64,000 bases of DNA from Octopus vulgaris (taxonomy: Eukaryota). The translations under genes were made by a program, and so were the position numbers. This document shows, piece after piece, positions 9,057 through 63,374 of the stretch. The notes under the pieces were generated by a model. That model was not told where the DNA came from and made no database searches. It saw only the letters and a list, made by a program, of their open reading frames with translations. The number at the start of each line of letters is the position of its first letter. Position 1 is the first letter of the stretch. Location of the stretch: the NCBI GenBank assembly GCA_951406725.2, contig OX597817.1:175274001-175338000 (forward strand), in the 5' to 3' direction.

Positions 9057-9649
9057 TTAACTTAAATCTGGCCTCTTTGAAGTAGTGTTGAAGATTTCTG
9101 TTGTGAAATTATGGTTGCACATGTCTTTGAAAATTTGTGGTTTGTCGTCTGCCAATTGCACCAACTGTTTGTAATTTGATACATAGTATGTGTAGTTTTC
9201 ATGAGGTTGACTGCTCAGAAAGTGGAAATCACGCGTATGGTTAGTTTGTCCTGAGCCAATGCTAACAACAAACAATCTTGTGCGTACTCCTTTGAGCTTT
9301 CTAGTTTCTTCAAGCAGGCTATCTGAAATATTCGTCATCTCTGAATCTACGAAGAGTACGGCTGTCGGAGTTCCCGAATGCTCTTTAAGTACAGTGTGTG
9401 TGTAAATAAGATTCCTCATTTTCTTCACAATATCAACAAGAGTCGGAAAATTATTTTCCTGAACTAGCTGTCGAGTGAAATTTGTCACTGATGTGAGAGG
9501 GATACTAAAGCCGCTTGGGCAATAAGCGTAGTTTGTAACACCGAAATATTGGTAAGTCATATATGGTAGAAGTTTGCTTATAAATGTCGATATCTTCGCG
9601 GTACGGTTATAGCCCAGGGACACCATGTCGTAACCAAACAGGATGACAG
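9057..9649 (-). CDS. Terminal coding exon of the VWA-domain protein (degenerate VWA-like domain)
   Basis: Acceptor TTCTCTTTCAAAG|CT (phase 1), 196 further sense codons to TAA at 9057-9059. VWA-like pattern (AVLFVD, RLFVVSIG, SSQPHENYTYYVSNYKQL, terminal Cys) without DxSxS. Seven N-x-S/T sequons. Confidence 0.85.
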
Positions 9650-10232
9650 CTTTGAAAGAGAAATAAATCAACGTTAATAAACACTCATGATTTTTTTCAG
9701 TTTTTAGATTTTAGTTCATTAATGTTATTCTATTTAGGCATGAGGCTTTGGTTATGTATATTGGTTTCAAATTTTGGTACAAAACCAGCAATTTGAACTC
9801 AGAACATAAAGATGGACAAAATGCCGCTAAGCATTTTTCCCAGCGTGCTAACGATTCTTATTTATTTACTGCCCACAAGGGGCTAAACATAGAGGGGACA
9901 AACAAGGACAGACAAAGGGATTAAGTCGATTACATCGACCCCAATGCGTAACTGGTACTTATTTAATCGACCCCGAAATGGGGATTCTAGAGGGAAATGA
10001 AAAGCAATACGCTATAACATTCATGACTTCTCTCACGGAACTAATTTGCATAAGTAAAGAGAAATTGTTTTAATTACTAATCGAAATCTCAATTCTATGC
10101 GCTCTTAAATTAATGATAAAGATGATTTCTTGATTAGGCGCCTTCAGCACCTCAAGGAGCCTAAAATTAAAAGTTTGAGAAGTTTATAACATACGTCCCT
10201 TTCTCTCTCTCTCTCTCTCTCTTTTCTTTCTT

Positions 10233-26343: not shown

Positions 26344-26604
26344 CGTGTATGTGTGTGTGTGTGTGTGTTTGTGTTTGTCTCGCATCACCGCTTGACAACT
26401 AGTGTTGCCTTGTTTACGTGCCCGTAAGAGACCGATAGAATAAGTCCCGGGCTTTAAAAAAACCCACATAAATATGAGTATTGGGGTTGGTTTGTTCGAC
26501 TAAACCCTTCAATGCAGCGCCTTTCAATGGCAGCAGTCTATTAACTGAAACAAGTGAAAGATAAGAGACAATAGATATTCAAACAAAAAAATATATTAAA
26601 TTAC

Positions 26605-27159
26605 CTCTGCAAGACTTTATGAAGAAGTTTTTCCCAATAGATTCCAAAGATTTATAATTGAAAAATCTATAGACACCATTATCTGGGTCACTTGCAATAA
26701 CTTTTAATTCCTTTATATGATATTTTTTACCGATTCCGATAGCATAGACTTTTATACCAAGTCGATGGAGATTTGCCGCTTCTGCTTTTGTCTTTCTGTG
26801 GGAACGGGAATTACCATCTGTGATAACTATTGTGACCAAAGTGGCGTTGCTTTTGACTAATGACTGGAATTGCTCTTTAACAAGTTTTAGAGCTGCTGCT
26901 GTATTTGTCCAACCACTTCGGTAACGAATTTTACTAATAGCTTTTTGCAGTTTTTCTTTGGTAACATATTGTCCAATAGGAAATTCCAAATGGGCCTTTT
27001 TACTGTATGTTATAACACCCATGCGCATTTTATTCATACCCACTTCAAAAGAATCAACGAATTCCTGTATAAATTTCAGAAGCCGCTCATAATCCTTTGG
27101 CCAGATACTTGAAGAAGAATCCAATACAAACAAGATGTCGGTTTCTTTTCCAACGCATT
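26605..27159 (-). CDS. Internal exon encoding a complete VWA domain (matrilin / collagen VI-XII-like)
   Basis: Acceptor TTTATTTCTAG|AA, donor GAG|GTAATT, 555 nt, phase 1-1. CVGKETDILFVLDSSSSIW...GWTNT...IVITDG...YAIGIG...IASDP...C has intact MIDAS residues and flanking cysteines. Confidence 0.96.
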
Positions 27160-28302
27160 CTAGAAATAAAAATTAAAAAAAGAAATTAGTGAAACAAAAT
27201 GGATATTATTATGAAATTCGTTAAGAGAAAAGTGCAAATATTTATCAATTATAAATGACTTGCAGAATTGAATTGATTCCGTCCTTTAAACTTATGCCTT
27301 CAAATATTGCAGAGATTGAATTTACTTTTTTTTTTATCTTGGCGGATCGATAAAAATAAAAGCCAGTAATAAAATAGAAATGATTTCACTTGATTATATC
27401 GACCCCACTTCAAAAATAATTGTTTTTATATCTCTACTAAAACCTAATCAGTATGTATTTATTCAGTATTATTGCTAACAGCTCTGTTTTTCAATAAATC
27501 TTTTACACGGAATTTACAACAATCTCAAATGGTTGTACTAGCACAAAATTCCAGACGCCGATGCTTCACACTGCAGTTGAAATATTCATATCTTGTAGCA
27601 AACTCATTTCCAGACAGGAATATTTTTTTACACCTAATGCCGTTCATGACTAAATCTAGCTAGCATTCTTTTGTTTCTATAAAAAGTGTTAATGCTACTT
27701 AAAAAGGACTGAAAGCTGAGTCGGTAGGGAGCCGTTAGAAAACTACTCTAACGACCAGAACGCACACACACATATATAACACACGCGTGGCCCTCCACAT
27801 CCTACCTCTCTTTCTCACACAGAGCAAAATTCTCGGCTGAAGCATCAGCAGTATTCTAAAAGTTGACGAATTTTCGTTGGCTTTCAAATAACTTCAATTT
27901 TACCGCGGGAAAAGTTTTTGCAGATTGTTCTCCTTTAAATTCATTGGGATATTTTACCCACAAAAGCGTAGATCAACAGACAGTATTTACATTTGATTGT
28001 ATATTATAATAGAATCGGTGAAATAAGTACTAATAGTATATGCAAGAATGATTAAATCGAGGGCTTTAGGGTTCCAACTTAGCGTTTTAAATGCGGAACA
28101 ATATTTCAAATGAAATGCAAAATGCACGGGCAAATAGACAAAACAAAAAAACAAAAAAACAAACTAACAAATATATAATAAGGTAAAAAAAACAAAGCAA
28201 TCCGAGACAGAGTTCTCATAGCTAAGCAATAATTCCCAGATATTTTCATATCCAAAATCACTTCGAGCTCAAATCATTTTGTGATTTCATCTAGAATTGT
28301 TG

Positions 28303-37680: not shown

Positions 37681-37715
<35 letters not shown>

Positions 37716-37876
37716 CGTATTTTTGCCATTTCAATATGGCTAACCCCTAAGGGTGGATGCTGCTGTAGTTTTTAGCCCCAGGAGGACACACTCCTCCAGC
37801 TGGCCATAGACACACTATCTGTGTCCTGTCAGTATTTGCAAAGGGAAGTCATCCTTCCCGTCTTCAACTTATGATA

Positions 37877-37921
37877 CACACGGACTCGAGTTTCGAGGTA
37901 TTGACCTCTCGTCAGCGTGTG
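37877..37921 (-). ncRNA. Type I hammerhead ribozyme (intact consensus)
   Basis: Minus strand CACACG-CTGACGA-GAGGT caat ACCTC-GAAA-CTCGAG-TC^CGTGTG. Confidence 0.93.
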
Positions 37922-38229
37922 ACAAACATAGTTGTCGCCGAGAATTAGATTTCCTTCACAAATACTTATACTTTTTCCAGCGTCCACTGTCGCTGATATT
38001 GAAAAAGTGAAATCAAACAATGATAAATATCAAAGTGAGTTATATACAGTAGCGGTAACACATCGTGACGTATTTTTGCCATTTCAATATGGCTAATCCC
38101 TAAGGGTGGATGCTACTGTAGTTTTTAGCCCCAGGAGGACACACTCCTCCAGCTGGCCATAGACACACTATCTGTGTCCTGTCAGTATTTGCAAAGGGAA
38201 GTCATCCTTCCCGTCTTCAACTTATGATA

Positions 38230-38274
38230 CACACGGACTCGAGTTTCGAGGTATTGACCTCTCGTCAGCGTGTG
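38230..38274 (-). ncRNA. Type I hammerhead ribozyme (intact consensus, second copy)
   Basis: Identical to 37877-37921. Confidence 0.93.
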
Positions 38275-38422
38275 ACAATCATAGTTGTCGCCGAGAATTA
38301 GATTTCCTTCACAAATACTTATACTTTTTCCAGCGTCCACTGTCGCTGATATTGAAAAAGTGAAATCAAACAATGATAAATATCAAAGTGAGTTATATAC
38401 AGTAGCGGTAACACATCGTGAC

Positions 38423-38494
<72 letters not shown>

Positions 38495-54776: not shown

Positions 54777-54813
54777 TATGTATGTATGTATGTGTGTGTG
54801 TGTGTGAACAATT

Positions 54814-54993
54814 GCAGCGTGTAAGGTGCTTGTAAGCCATTTAAGAAACACAAAAAACCCCGTTAGATTCACTTTAAATTTAATTTGCCAAAATAAGTGA
54901 CGAAAATATTTTGGCAAATCAAACTTAAATGTTGAAGTGAATCTAATGATTTTTTGTGTTTCTTAAATGGCTTATAAACACCTTCCACGCTGC
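54814..54993. repeat. Fold-back inverted repeat (about 80-bp arms)
   Basis: GCAGCGTGTAAGGTGCTTGTAAGCCATTTAAGAAACACAAAAAA mirrored by TTTTTTGTGTTTCTTAAATGGCTTATAAACACCTTCCACGCTGC. Confidence 0.88.
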
Positions 54994-55057
54994 TGCAAGT
55001 TTTTTCGTTCCAACACACGATCTCAGATCAGGTCTTTTGCTATGCAATACATCTCCG

Positions 55058-55125
<68 letters not shown>

Positions 55126-55255
55126 TTATCAATATAGGGTAGCAAAAAAATTCAAGAAAAATTCAAGAAAAATTTTCTGCAACCAGCGGTCAAGTGAGAA
55201 AATAGAAATAGTCACAGACTATATAATATATTCAACAAAATATATTCGTTTGGTG

Positions 55256-55352
55256 ACTTTGCTGATGAAACAAGCCAATCGCAAACGGATTTAATTTAAT
55301 TTAATTAAGTTCGATTGAGTAAAAATTGTTGAAACCTTGCAGGGTACAAAGT
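55256..55352 (+). ncRNA. Type I hammerhead ribozyme with extended stem II
   Basis: ACTTTG-CTGATGA-AACAA..CAATCG...CGATTG..TTGTT-GAAA-CCTTGCAGGG-TA^CAAAGT. Confidence 0.88.
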
Positions 55353-55745
55353 TGAAAGGGATAAATGTTTTTATTTCTCCTTTAGCGTTCAGAATTACTA
55401 CTATTTTTGCGGTTTGAGTTTGGCTGCTCTTTTCAAGTGAGTTGAAAGACCTGTTAGGGTCATTCCTTAATACTTTGTTGAATATATTATATAGTCTGTA
55501 ACTATTTCTATTTTCTCACTTGACCGCTGGTTGCAGAAAACTTTTCTTGAATTTTTCTTGAATTTTTTTGCTACCCTATATTGATAAATTAATAATTTTT
55601 GACTAATTCTGAAATTGTATCAGCAGTTTATATTTGCTGCTGAGTAGTTGGCGCGGTTACGTTGGATTTCGAAAAATTAGGATATATACACTCGGGGCTT
55701 CAGTGGTGTCGCCTCGTGGGTATATGTTCTCCTTTTCTTTTGGTG

Positions 55746-55842
55746 ACTTTGCTGATGAAACAAGCCAATCGCAAACGGATTTAATTTAATTTAATTAAGT
55801 TCGATTGCGTAAAAGTTGTTGAAACCTTGCAGGGTACAAAGT
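55746..55842 (+). ncRNA. Type I hammerhead ribozyme, second copy
   Basis: Same as 55256-55352, with two changes in the internal loop of stem II. Confidence 0.88.
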
Positions 55843-56031
55843 TGAAAGGGATAAATGTTTTTATTTCTCCTTTAGCTTTCAGAATTATTACTATTTTTGC
55901 GGTTTGATTTTGGCTGCTCTTTTCAAGTGAGTTGAAAGACCTGTTAGGGTCATTCCTTAATACTTTGTTGTATATATATATATATATATATATACATATA
56001 TACACAAGAACTAAGGAATGAAGTAGATAAG

Positions 56032-60004: not shown

Positions 60005-60382
60005 TATATATATATGATTATATATTACATGTATATATATATATATATATATTCTCATACTAAAGTATATACAGATTTCACATTTGATATTACTGAAGGG
60101 AAGAAGAGTTATTTATAGATGCTTATCAATACAGGATTCCATTATTCTATATTATCTAATTATATGAACTTTATTTGGAATACAAGACAATATAACGGAT
60201 TTTACATATGAATATTATGAATTATTACAGAAGACTAACCAAGGAAGTATATATGGACTTAGACTCTCATCAAAACAGTAATTTTTAATTTATTATTTTT
60301 CAAACAAACACCATTTTATAGTTTTACTTCAAACTTTTAAAAAAACTACCATTCGATATGTTATACAAAATTCAAATTTTAT

Positions 60383-60472
60383 ATCTCTGAAGAGCAGAAG
60401 AGTTGTCTATAAATGCTTATCAATATAGGATTTCATTACAGGGACAGCACTTCTGTGAAACGATCGTAAGAT
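60383..60472 (+). ncRNA. Type I hammerhead ribozyme (intact core, long stem II)
   Basis: ATCT-CTGAAGA-GCAGAAGAGTTGTC...GACAGCACTTCTGT-GAAA-CGATCG-TA^AGAT. Confidence 0.8.
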
Positions 60473-60670
60473 GCTTTAAATACTTAATTCAAAATTTTTA
60501 AACTGTCATATACATTATATATTTATACTTATACATGTTTACATATATTTTTATTCATATTTATAAGTTTAATACAACAATTATTTCACACACGGATATA
60601 TCTTTCTGAAGAATTTTCTAATATTGATTTCCTGATAATAATAATAATATATATATTTGACACACAAACT

Positions 60671-60714
60671 GCTGCATTGATAAGGGGCAACAACCCTGAA
60701 ACGTCGTCTGTAGC
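60671..60714 (+). ncRNA. Decayed minimal hammerhead
   Basis: GCTGCA-TTGATAA-GGGG caacaa CCCT-GAAA-CGTCG-TC-TGTAGC: stems retained, two core substitutions. Confidence 0.55.
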
Positions 60715-60934
60715 TGTCTGACTGGCAGGATGAAGCGGCTGACCTCCCTTGTTCGAAGGTTTATAATGGACGCAGTTTGTGTGTCAAATAGCTAGCTTAA
60801 GGCGATGGCCTCATGGAGGTAATCAGCGACAGTTTTAGTCTTATATTTATAAGACTGCCATATTAGTATGGCGATAACTATTAATTTCCAGTAACGCTGC
60901 CGTAATCTTTTTTAGAGAGACTTAATCATTTTAA

Positions 60935-61036
<102 letters not shown>

Positions 61037-63114: not shown

Positions 63115-63209
63115 AACATTTACCATCTAACTCCTAGACCAATGGTTTCAGACTTTTATTTGCTAAAAAAGTCTGAAACCATTGGTCCAGGAGTTAGATG
63201 GTAAATGTT
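63115..63209. repeat. Fold-back palindrome containing the 3' half of a hammerhead
   Basis: Arms of about 43 bp. The right arm reads GTCT-GAAA-CCATTGG-TC-CAGGAG. Confidence 0.85.
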
Positions 63210-63308
63210 TATATTTTTTATTCCCTTCGAAACTTTATCCCTAATAGTGGTTTGGAATTTAACTGTCCTTTCTATGATGGATATCTCCTGTGTGTTTAAA
63301 TGTACACA

Positions 63309-63374
<66 letters not shown>

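Follow-up and report, generated by a model that had tools for sequence, protein, structure and literature searches.

The described systems closest to the element reported here are the metazoan non-LTR retrozymes and the Penelope-like elements (PLEs). In the published sections that we compared, invertebrate retrozymes measure 170–400 nt (PMC7229834) and retrozyme families span 51–972 bp (preprint 10.64898/2026.07.22.740005). As far as the corresponding sections on PLE insertion go, the PLE protein, which is predicted to be a dimer, cuts both target strands and extends them from two internal RNA sites, one at either boundary of the tail; in vitro, the two strands did not differ in start site and ribozyme cleavage was dispensable (PMC11167929). 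The octopus element has a unit of 490 nt, which lies above the first of these length ranges but inside the second, and the description of it as large for an animal retrozyme in the first-pass annotation therefore falls away.

The element lies within positions 55,058–56,031 of the window, by which we mean the whole 64,000-nucleotide stretch of DNA that was analysed. Its main arm (55249–55970, + strand) runs through approximately 1.47 units (u393–490, u1–490 and u1–134, with u1 at 55347) and contains the 232-bp direct repeat at 490-bp spacing that had been annotated previously. The two copies (55249–55480 and 55739–55970, both + strand) differ by 5 mismatches, each private to the window locus or nearly so, and the repeat can be extended to 243 nt at 97% identity with a period of 490. 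To the left lies an inverted arm (55124–55239, − strand) that reads from u243 back to u128 and matches 55470–55589. The inversion had been recognized correctly, although at 122 bp its length was overstated: the arm measures 116 nt, or 120 nt (to 55243) if a third mismatch is allowed. The outer ends of the two arms, which we call S1 (55970, main arm) and S2 (55124, inverted arm), both abut (TA)n. As claimed, TA tracts flank the element at 55060–55129 and 55971–56002, with target tracts assigned to 55060–55123 on the left and 55971–56002 on the right, and no open reading frame (ORF) was seen, the longest ATG ORF within the element being 21 amino acids. Inside the unit, S1 (u134, 55480) and S2 (55589) bound a ‘tail’ of approximately 109 nt (55481–55589, + strand). 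S1 falls between two hairpins of a conserved structured domain (55434–55522, + strand), in which a helix (55434–41/55515–22) encloses hairpins near 55444–65 and 55490–55505. The domain lies ahead of S2 and covaries weakly, with two-sided changes in 3 of its 40 consensus pairs. Immediately to the left of the element lies a palindromic, very high-copy, MITE-like repeat (54810–54995), whose contig cover is far deeper than that of the element.

Both repeat copies carry the intact type I hammerhead claimed for them, found here by motif reading at 55254–55354 and 55744–55844 (+ strand), with predicted cuts after 55346 and 55836. The motifs follow in the same order in both: UGACUUUG, CUGAUGA (55262 and 55752), stem II, GAAA, CCUUGCAGGG, UA and CAAAGUUG. 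In the first hammerhead, stem I pairs 55254–61 with 55347–54, the core occupies 55262–68, stem II 55269–55330, GAAA 55331–34 and the self-complementary stem III 55335–44. Stem II is 62 nt long, AU-rich and closed by A10.1–U11.1; the A–U at this position, rather than the usual G–C, counts against regarding cleavage as proven. The two cuts would bound a predicted unit-length RNA of 490 nt and 34% GC (55347–55836, + strand).

A descriptor scan of the 64-kb window returned five hammerhead matches, namely these two, two motifs of a 353-nt family and one at 60387, whereas Rfam at its gathering threshold gave no match in the window. In the 353-nt tandem family (37712–38426), the type I hammerheads lie on the minus strand, their cores being at 38268 and 37915; stem III is the palindrome CUCGAG, and this family also sits in (TA)n. 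Its sequence is unrelated to that of the 490-nt element, as had been stated earlier: local scores of 22 and 28 were equalled by 93 and 21 of 100 shuffles, respectively. The element likewise shows no likeness above shuffles to 60081–60940. Within that region, 60382–60475 is another candidate for a type I hammerhead, its stem II 63 nt long and its stem III the palindrome CGAUCG, and 60671–60714 is, by eye, a possible U3–A8 variant with the core UUGAUAA. Elsewhere in the window, VWA-domain exons of a host gene lie at 9057–9710 and 26579–27172 (minus strand); for one window exon, the nearest VWA clusters are mostly molluscan.

Across 20 family members, 97% of the 240 cells of the hammerhead alignment are paired and 9 of the 12 pairs change on both sides. 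The covariation score was reached by none of 500 shuffles; the relatedness of the 20 sequences inflates this test, yet slid controls nonetheless drop to 22–45% paired. The stem III variants CCUUGCAGGG, CUAUGCAUGG, CUAUGCAUAG and CAAUGCAUUG are, every one, fully self-complementary, and full self-complementarity is kept through changes in 49 of 54 locus-by-variant counts (true hammerhead matches, with 12 matches at an unrelated motif excluded). The family’s ribozyme is demonstrably under selection. Folded singly, the unit has a minimum of −132.9 kcal/mol (z = −4.7) with 64% of its bases paired. Because this stability and the covariation of the helices both exceed their controls, the unit and its hammerheads are beyond chance. 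Folding of the unit as a circle, a check named in the first-pass annotation, gave −129.0 kcal/mol (z = −5.8) with stem I disrupted.

The energies of stem III differ markedly between its two possible states, from 0 to −0.8 kcal/mol as a hairpin and from −11.7 to −15.5 kcal/mol as a duplex. In the monomer, stems I and III reach probabilities of only 0–0.24 and the hammerhead is mostly mis-paired, and folding thus predicts that the monomer hammerhead requires a partner. In the locus transcript, stem III pairs between the copies with p = 1.0, and a double hammerhead is favoured over two single ones by 10 kcal/mol, yet the catalytic double-hammerhead fold lies 11 kcal/mol above the unconstrained minimum. 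The covarying helices together with the self-complementary stem III make dimer-type cleavage likely, as judged from sequence. A dimer-dependent hammerhead design with such a stem III has been described (PMC4209133, in the part compared), but among Xenopus retrozyme dimers only one of nine predicted was reported as cleaved in the sections of the preprint considered here (10.64898/2026.07.22.740005).

The window element belongs to a dispersed family. With its unit as the query, at least 127 matches were obtained from the 40 scored of 2,127 candidates, and a 19-mer common to the window unit and a sister subfamily has 816 exact matches genome-wide (reversed control, 0). The first 100 of these 816 places, which represent 82 loci, 78 of them added to the set, provided a sample that was not ranked by score. 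At least five subfamilies, 59–99% alike, can be distinguished (85%, 71% and 59% identical to the window unit, with others between), and the unit period remains 470–490 nt in all five, even at 59% identity. Most copies are dispersed insertions of 0.2–1.5 units in (TA)n. Contigs of four runs from one study, presumed to be RNA, contain pieces of the family, from which strand, ends and level are not readable; in the contigs of a further four runs, no junction spanning the entire element, the mark of an empty site, was found. A search of the open-access literature found no description of this family or of the strict end pairing reported below, although supplements and repeat databases such as Repbase and Dfam may hold the family, and the compared part of the octopus repeat annotation paper does not mention ribozymes.

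Several members have individual features. A second, distant member of the superfamily, belonging to the 59% subfamily, lies in the window itself (63115–63312), with a 476-nt unit, a fold-back arm, stem III CCAUUGG, stem I CCUG/CAGG and 1,749 search candidates genome-wide. Subfamilies represented by L101, L109, L113 and L155 propagate a U4C core variant (CCGAUGA). At L028 (1280–2000), the flank past the 5′ end of the element is an inverted copy of approximately 30 nt of the 3′-end flank.

The 3′ ends of the family lie on (TA)n: in the sample not ranked by score, (TA)4 occurs nearby in 115 of 125 ends, compared with 147 of 1,326 control windows. Copies end at one of two unit positions approximately 109 nt apart, S1 near u134 and S2 near u243, both of which are TA-like in sequence. 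Site bins were kept wide (u120–170 and u195–265) because alignments run into TA. A pure TA microhomology origin of the two sites is unlikely, as the AT-rich patches at u330, u372 and u430–455 are unused as ends.

We assembled 124 distinct insertions, after dropping 16 duplicate locus ids, from samples selected by motif or score; 78 of them are inverted, with two outward 3′ ends. These 78 comprise 71 S1/S2 pairs (70 independent, as L160 and L161 are one duplicated insertion), no S1/S1, no S2/S2 and 7 with an off-site end. The missing classes are absent where they would be detectable, S2/S2 from 45 insertions of the unbiased set and S1/S1 from 14 of the tail-selected set. In the 59% subfamily, 18 of 28 loci are inverted (13 S1/S2, 1 S1/near-S1 and 4 off-site), so that on-site pairs are unlike in 13 of 14 cases there and in 84 of 85 overall. 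The window copy follows the rule, with S2 at 55124 and S1 at 55970. Median identity is 97.7% between the two arms of a locus and 83.7% between an arm and other loci, as measured at 65 loci whose arms overlap, and the junctions between arms are mostly without TA, with gaps of −17 to +23 nt. The first-pass annotation had described an inverted pseudo-LTR on the 5′ side; the inversion stands, but the arm is not a random pseudo-LTR and behaves as a second 3′ end at the fixed site S2. Given the strict pairing of S1 with S2, the inverted arm is likely to represent another cDNA, for which the opposite target strand served as primer at S2.

Mobilization by PLEs had also been proposed. The family has PLE-type traits: it is multi-copy, (TA)n-targeted and 5′-truncated, with partial tandems and inversions, and it displays one-sided tail extension from two start sites, all 71 on-site pairs being unlike and S1 and S2 approximately 109 nt apart. 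A non-autonomous hammerhead element with PLE-type insertions is thus upheld, and mobilization by a PLE is read from this architecture, no homologous autonomous PLE having been found. It had been suggested that neighbouring ORFs be inspected, and among the loci examined no copy is the terminus of a coding PLE: no reverse transcriptase (RT) plus GIY-YIG ORF was found between terminal repeats among the element loci, none of 78 motif-selected loci reaches an upstream ORF as the element’s terminus, and the 99 stretches taken from the four PLE families A, B, D and E include no autonomous PLE with homologous termini. Neither of two leads to an autonomous parent held: in L004, a tail-like piece (76%) led to a sister non-coding subfamily, and a 68% relative within the window led to another subfamily.

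Young, high-copy, intact RT–GIY-YIG PLE families are present in the genome, and two were seen ending on (TA)n. PLE identity was assigned from RT and GIY-YIG motifs read directly and from Atlas clusters for the full 781-amino-acid protein; a Pfam scan of four PLE fragments returned no families. Copies of family A (L037–L065) are 98–99% alike, many with an intact 781-amino-acid frame and a CxxC linker (2,820 candidates); they end on (TA)n and, by eye, have a possible minimal U3–A8 hammerhead approximately 65 nt from the 3′ end. Family B (L236, G000:C1:27840000-27849900) occurs in 4.27-kb head-to-tail tandems whose unit junction contains an internal (TA)7; it has a long upstream frame before the RT–EN frame and showed no canonical hammerhead. 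Family E (L150:900-1950) is very young and C-rich, with copies 99–100% alike (1,910 candidates). Pieces of PLE ORFs occur in 9 distinct loci of the element among those scanned. Four insertions (L005, L008, L019 and L150) are fused without TA to PLE fragments, each of a different family. In L005 and L008 the fragment is joined head to head with the S1 arm, L019 is complex and L150 is a tandem at S2, in which one 5′-truncated copy of family E is fused directly behind the S2 end of the element. These fusions may be co-insertions, or chance neighbours in shared TA tracts that were joined by deletion.

The points at which arms stop bear on the template. Of 92 arms, 38 stop in u1–45, just 3′ of the predicted cut, compared with 18 of 110 in the preceding bin (P = 0.0001) and 12 of 54 in the following bin (P = 0.02); with clean junctions only, the figure is 31 of 56. 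The smaller tail-selected set gives 8 of 30 and 3 of 22 for the following bin, a difference that is not significant. The cluster fits cleaved linear templates; its stops are scattered over u2–45, not concentrated at u1, and a hairpin at u5–41 could produce it without cleavage. Among unbiased arms, 54 of 121 (45%) cross the predicted cut and 21 of 121 (17%) are longer than one unit, and circles or uncleaved tandems are therefore needed as templates. We rejected the long arrays as proof of rolling-circle copying, because the inner units of the two longest share derived changes and these arrays must have grown after insertion. A linear master would be marked by shared-phase differences between the first repeat and the second; none was found beyond the S1 boundary.

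Taken together, the window copy is one insertion from a dispersed, protein-free hammerhead family. We think it probable that this family is a non-autonomous retrozyme that is copied by a PLE reverse transcriptase and endonuclease, and that the inverted arm derives from priming of both target strands at two fixed RNA sites. Multi-unit transcripts would self-cleave once two hammerheads had paired through the 10-nt self-complementary stem III, giving unit-length linear RNA, some of it perhaps circularized. A PLE protein, probably dimeric, would nick both strands of (TA)n; one nicked 3′ end would prime synthesis at S1 and its counterpart at S2, both on one RNA or on an RNA dimer, and the two 5′-truncated cDNAs would then be joined head to head. 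Templates would be mixed: the stops immediately 3′ of the cut would come from cleaved linear RNA, and the arms that cross it from RNA left uncleaved or circularized. Arms of more than one unit would regenerate two-hammerhead source copies such as the window element.

The copies might instead be solo or truncated pseudo-LTRs of an undiscovered autonomous PLE, with the 490-nt period being only its terminal repeat. PLE insertions are heavily 5′-truncated, and retrozymes are often homologous to pLTRs (24/57 Xenopus families matched Repbase elements, 21/22 of these PLEs, in the compared sections of 10.64898/2026.07.22.740005); in addition, the parent search covered four PLE families, and score-ranked searches favour full units. 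However, arms follow the unit without loss of colinearity for as many as 4.5 turns, 21 of the 121 unbiased arms exceed one unit, no upstream ORF has the element as its terminus at any of the 78 motif-selected loci, and a 470–490-nt period persists in five subfamilies down to 59% identity, all of which makes this origin highly improbable. A proposal compatible with the preferred reading keeps the same element and mobilizer but has, for its main template, a covalently closed circle of 490 nt on which reverse transcription would proceed by a rolling-circle mechanism, as has been proposed for animal retrozymes. Circles are abundant for retrozymes of coral, mussel and axolotl (PMC7229834, in the part compared), the 54 of 121 arms that cross the cut and the origin of all passes within a locus from one variant agree with it, and the stable circle fold, with stem I disrupted, would protect the molecule from re-cleavage. 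We nevertheless consider a mainly circular template possible but rather doubtful: an excess of stops immediately 3′ of the cut is seen in the second turn as well as in the first, the longest arrays expanded after insertion and uncleaved tandem transcripts explain the cut crossings equally well.

It is less probable still that two RNAs gave rise to the inverted arm, whether joined in a stem III duplex or carried by separate RNPs, or that one TA tract received two insertions in succession. The arms often cover the same unit positions, which would need strand displacement if one RNA were used, and in L005 and L008 the partner arm is PLE RNA, not the element. Independent events, however, predict S1/S1 and S2/S2 pairs and arms of mixed subfamilies, whereas like-with-like pairs number 0 of 71, the arms of a locus are alike at a median of 97.7% and most junctions lack TA (gaps of −17 to +23 nt); an asymmetric two-RNA complex may be compatible with the end counts. 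Of all these alternatives, the one we find least credible is a SINE-like passenger of a microsatellite-targeting LINE using L1-type twin priming, a process that is established for L1. Non-PLE RT pieces do lie near some loci, but LINEs prime at the 3′ end of their RNA and use a variable second site, whereas the element’s two sites are internal, occupy fixed positions and are copied through in later turns, and its copies have no poly(A) or LINE-derived tail. LINEs have been named as possible mobilizers of retrozymes (PMC7229834), but a tail at one end is a PLE signature (PMC8557442), in the sections of both papers considered here.

Returning to the PLE-copied retrozyme that we favour, a bolder version of it seems possible to us but short of probable. 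The element may be an old, independent retrozyme lineage with no surviving parent pLTR, which hijacks several unrelated PLE proteins through its conserved RNA domain, and its hundreds of insertions may record an asymmetric PLE integration complex, in which the two strands always start at S1 and S2, respectively, of the same RNA or of a ribozyme-linked dimer. If the complex is asymmetric, inverted pseudo-LTRs and the one-sided PLE tail would reflect obligate two-site twin priming in general. The origin of tandem and inverted PLE structures and of the tail is named as unresolved in the compared part of PMC8557442, and the family provides a counted rule (84 of 85). Two start sites were seen in vitro in PMC11167929, and were not linked to strands in the sections considered here. 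With its two mapped sites on a compact non-coding RNA of 250 nt, the family opens the asymmetric-priming model to direct test, and the same genome holds young, intact PLE proteins as possible partners.

In L1 twin priming, inversions arise when cDNA primed from both target strands is joined head to head, the first site being the poly(A) end and the second variable; the element differs in that both of its sites are fixed and internal. In its sequence, it falls within the definition of a metazoan non-LTR retrozyme: the window element has a complete type I hammerhead in each of two consecutive units, and the family consists of multi-copy partial tandems of low GC (34%, below 45%) with a self-paired unit. 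It shares with described metazoan retrozymes the type I hammerhead in each unit, the lack of an ORF, low GC and coexistence with PLEs (PMC7229834; 10.64898/2026.07.22.740005), and with those of newt and axolotl a short palindromic stem III suited to dimer cleavage. It departs from them in its 62-nt AU-rich stem II with an A–U closing pair, in having no pLTR homologue among the four PLE families and in its dispersed (TA)n insertions of 0.2–1.5 units with fixed ends and inversions, which are absent from the published sections compared.

The element is not an autonomous PLE. In the parts of the PLE papers considered here, EN+ PLEs resemble it in partial tandems, an inverted 5′-truncated copy, a microsatellite target, a tail at one end and two internal reverse-transcription start sites with a type I hammerhead upstream of them (PMC8557442; PMC11167929; PMC4209133), but the element has no RT or GIY-YIG ORF and its tail is approximately 109 nt, compared with 30–40 in PLEs. 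The Chlamys non-autonomous PLEs such as MRC1 are also non-coding passengers with pLTR-like and head-to-tail insertions, yet, as described in the part compared, these share their 3′ sequence with an autonomous partner and belong to a clade without canonical hammerheads (PMC8557442). For the anole PLE in vitro, the sections compared report no strand difference (PMC11167929), whereas near-strict pairing of unlike ends was counted here. The pairing of S1 with S2 extends the known ‘tail at one end’ pattern of PLEs. The class of element is therefore already known; the ribozyme repeat is a new family of it, and the S1/S2 end rule is the new point.
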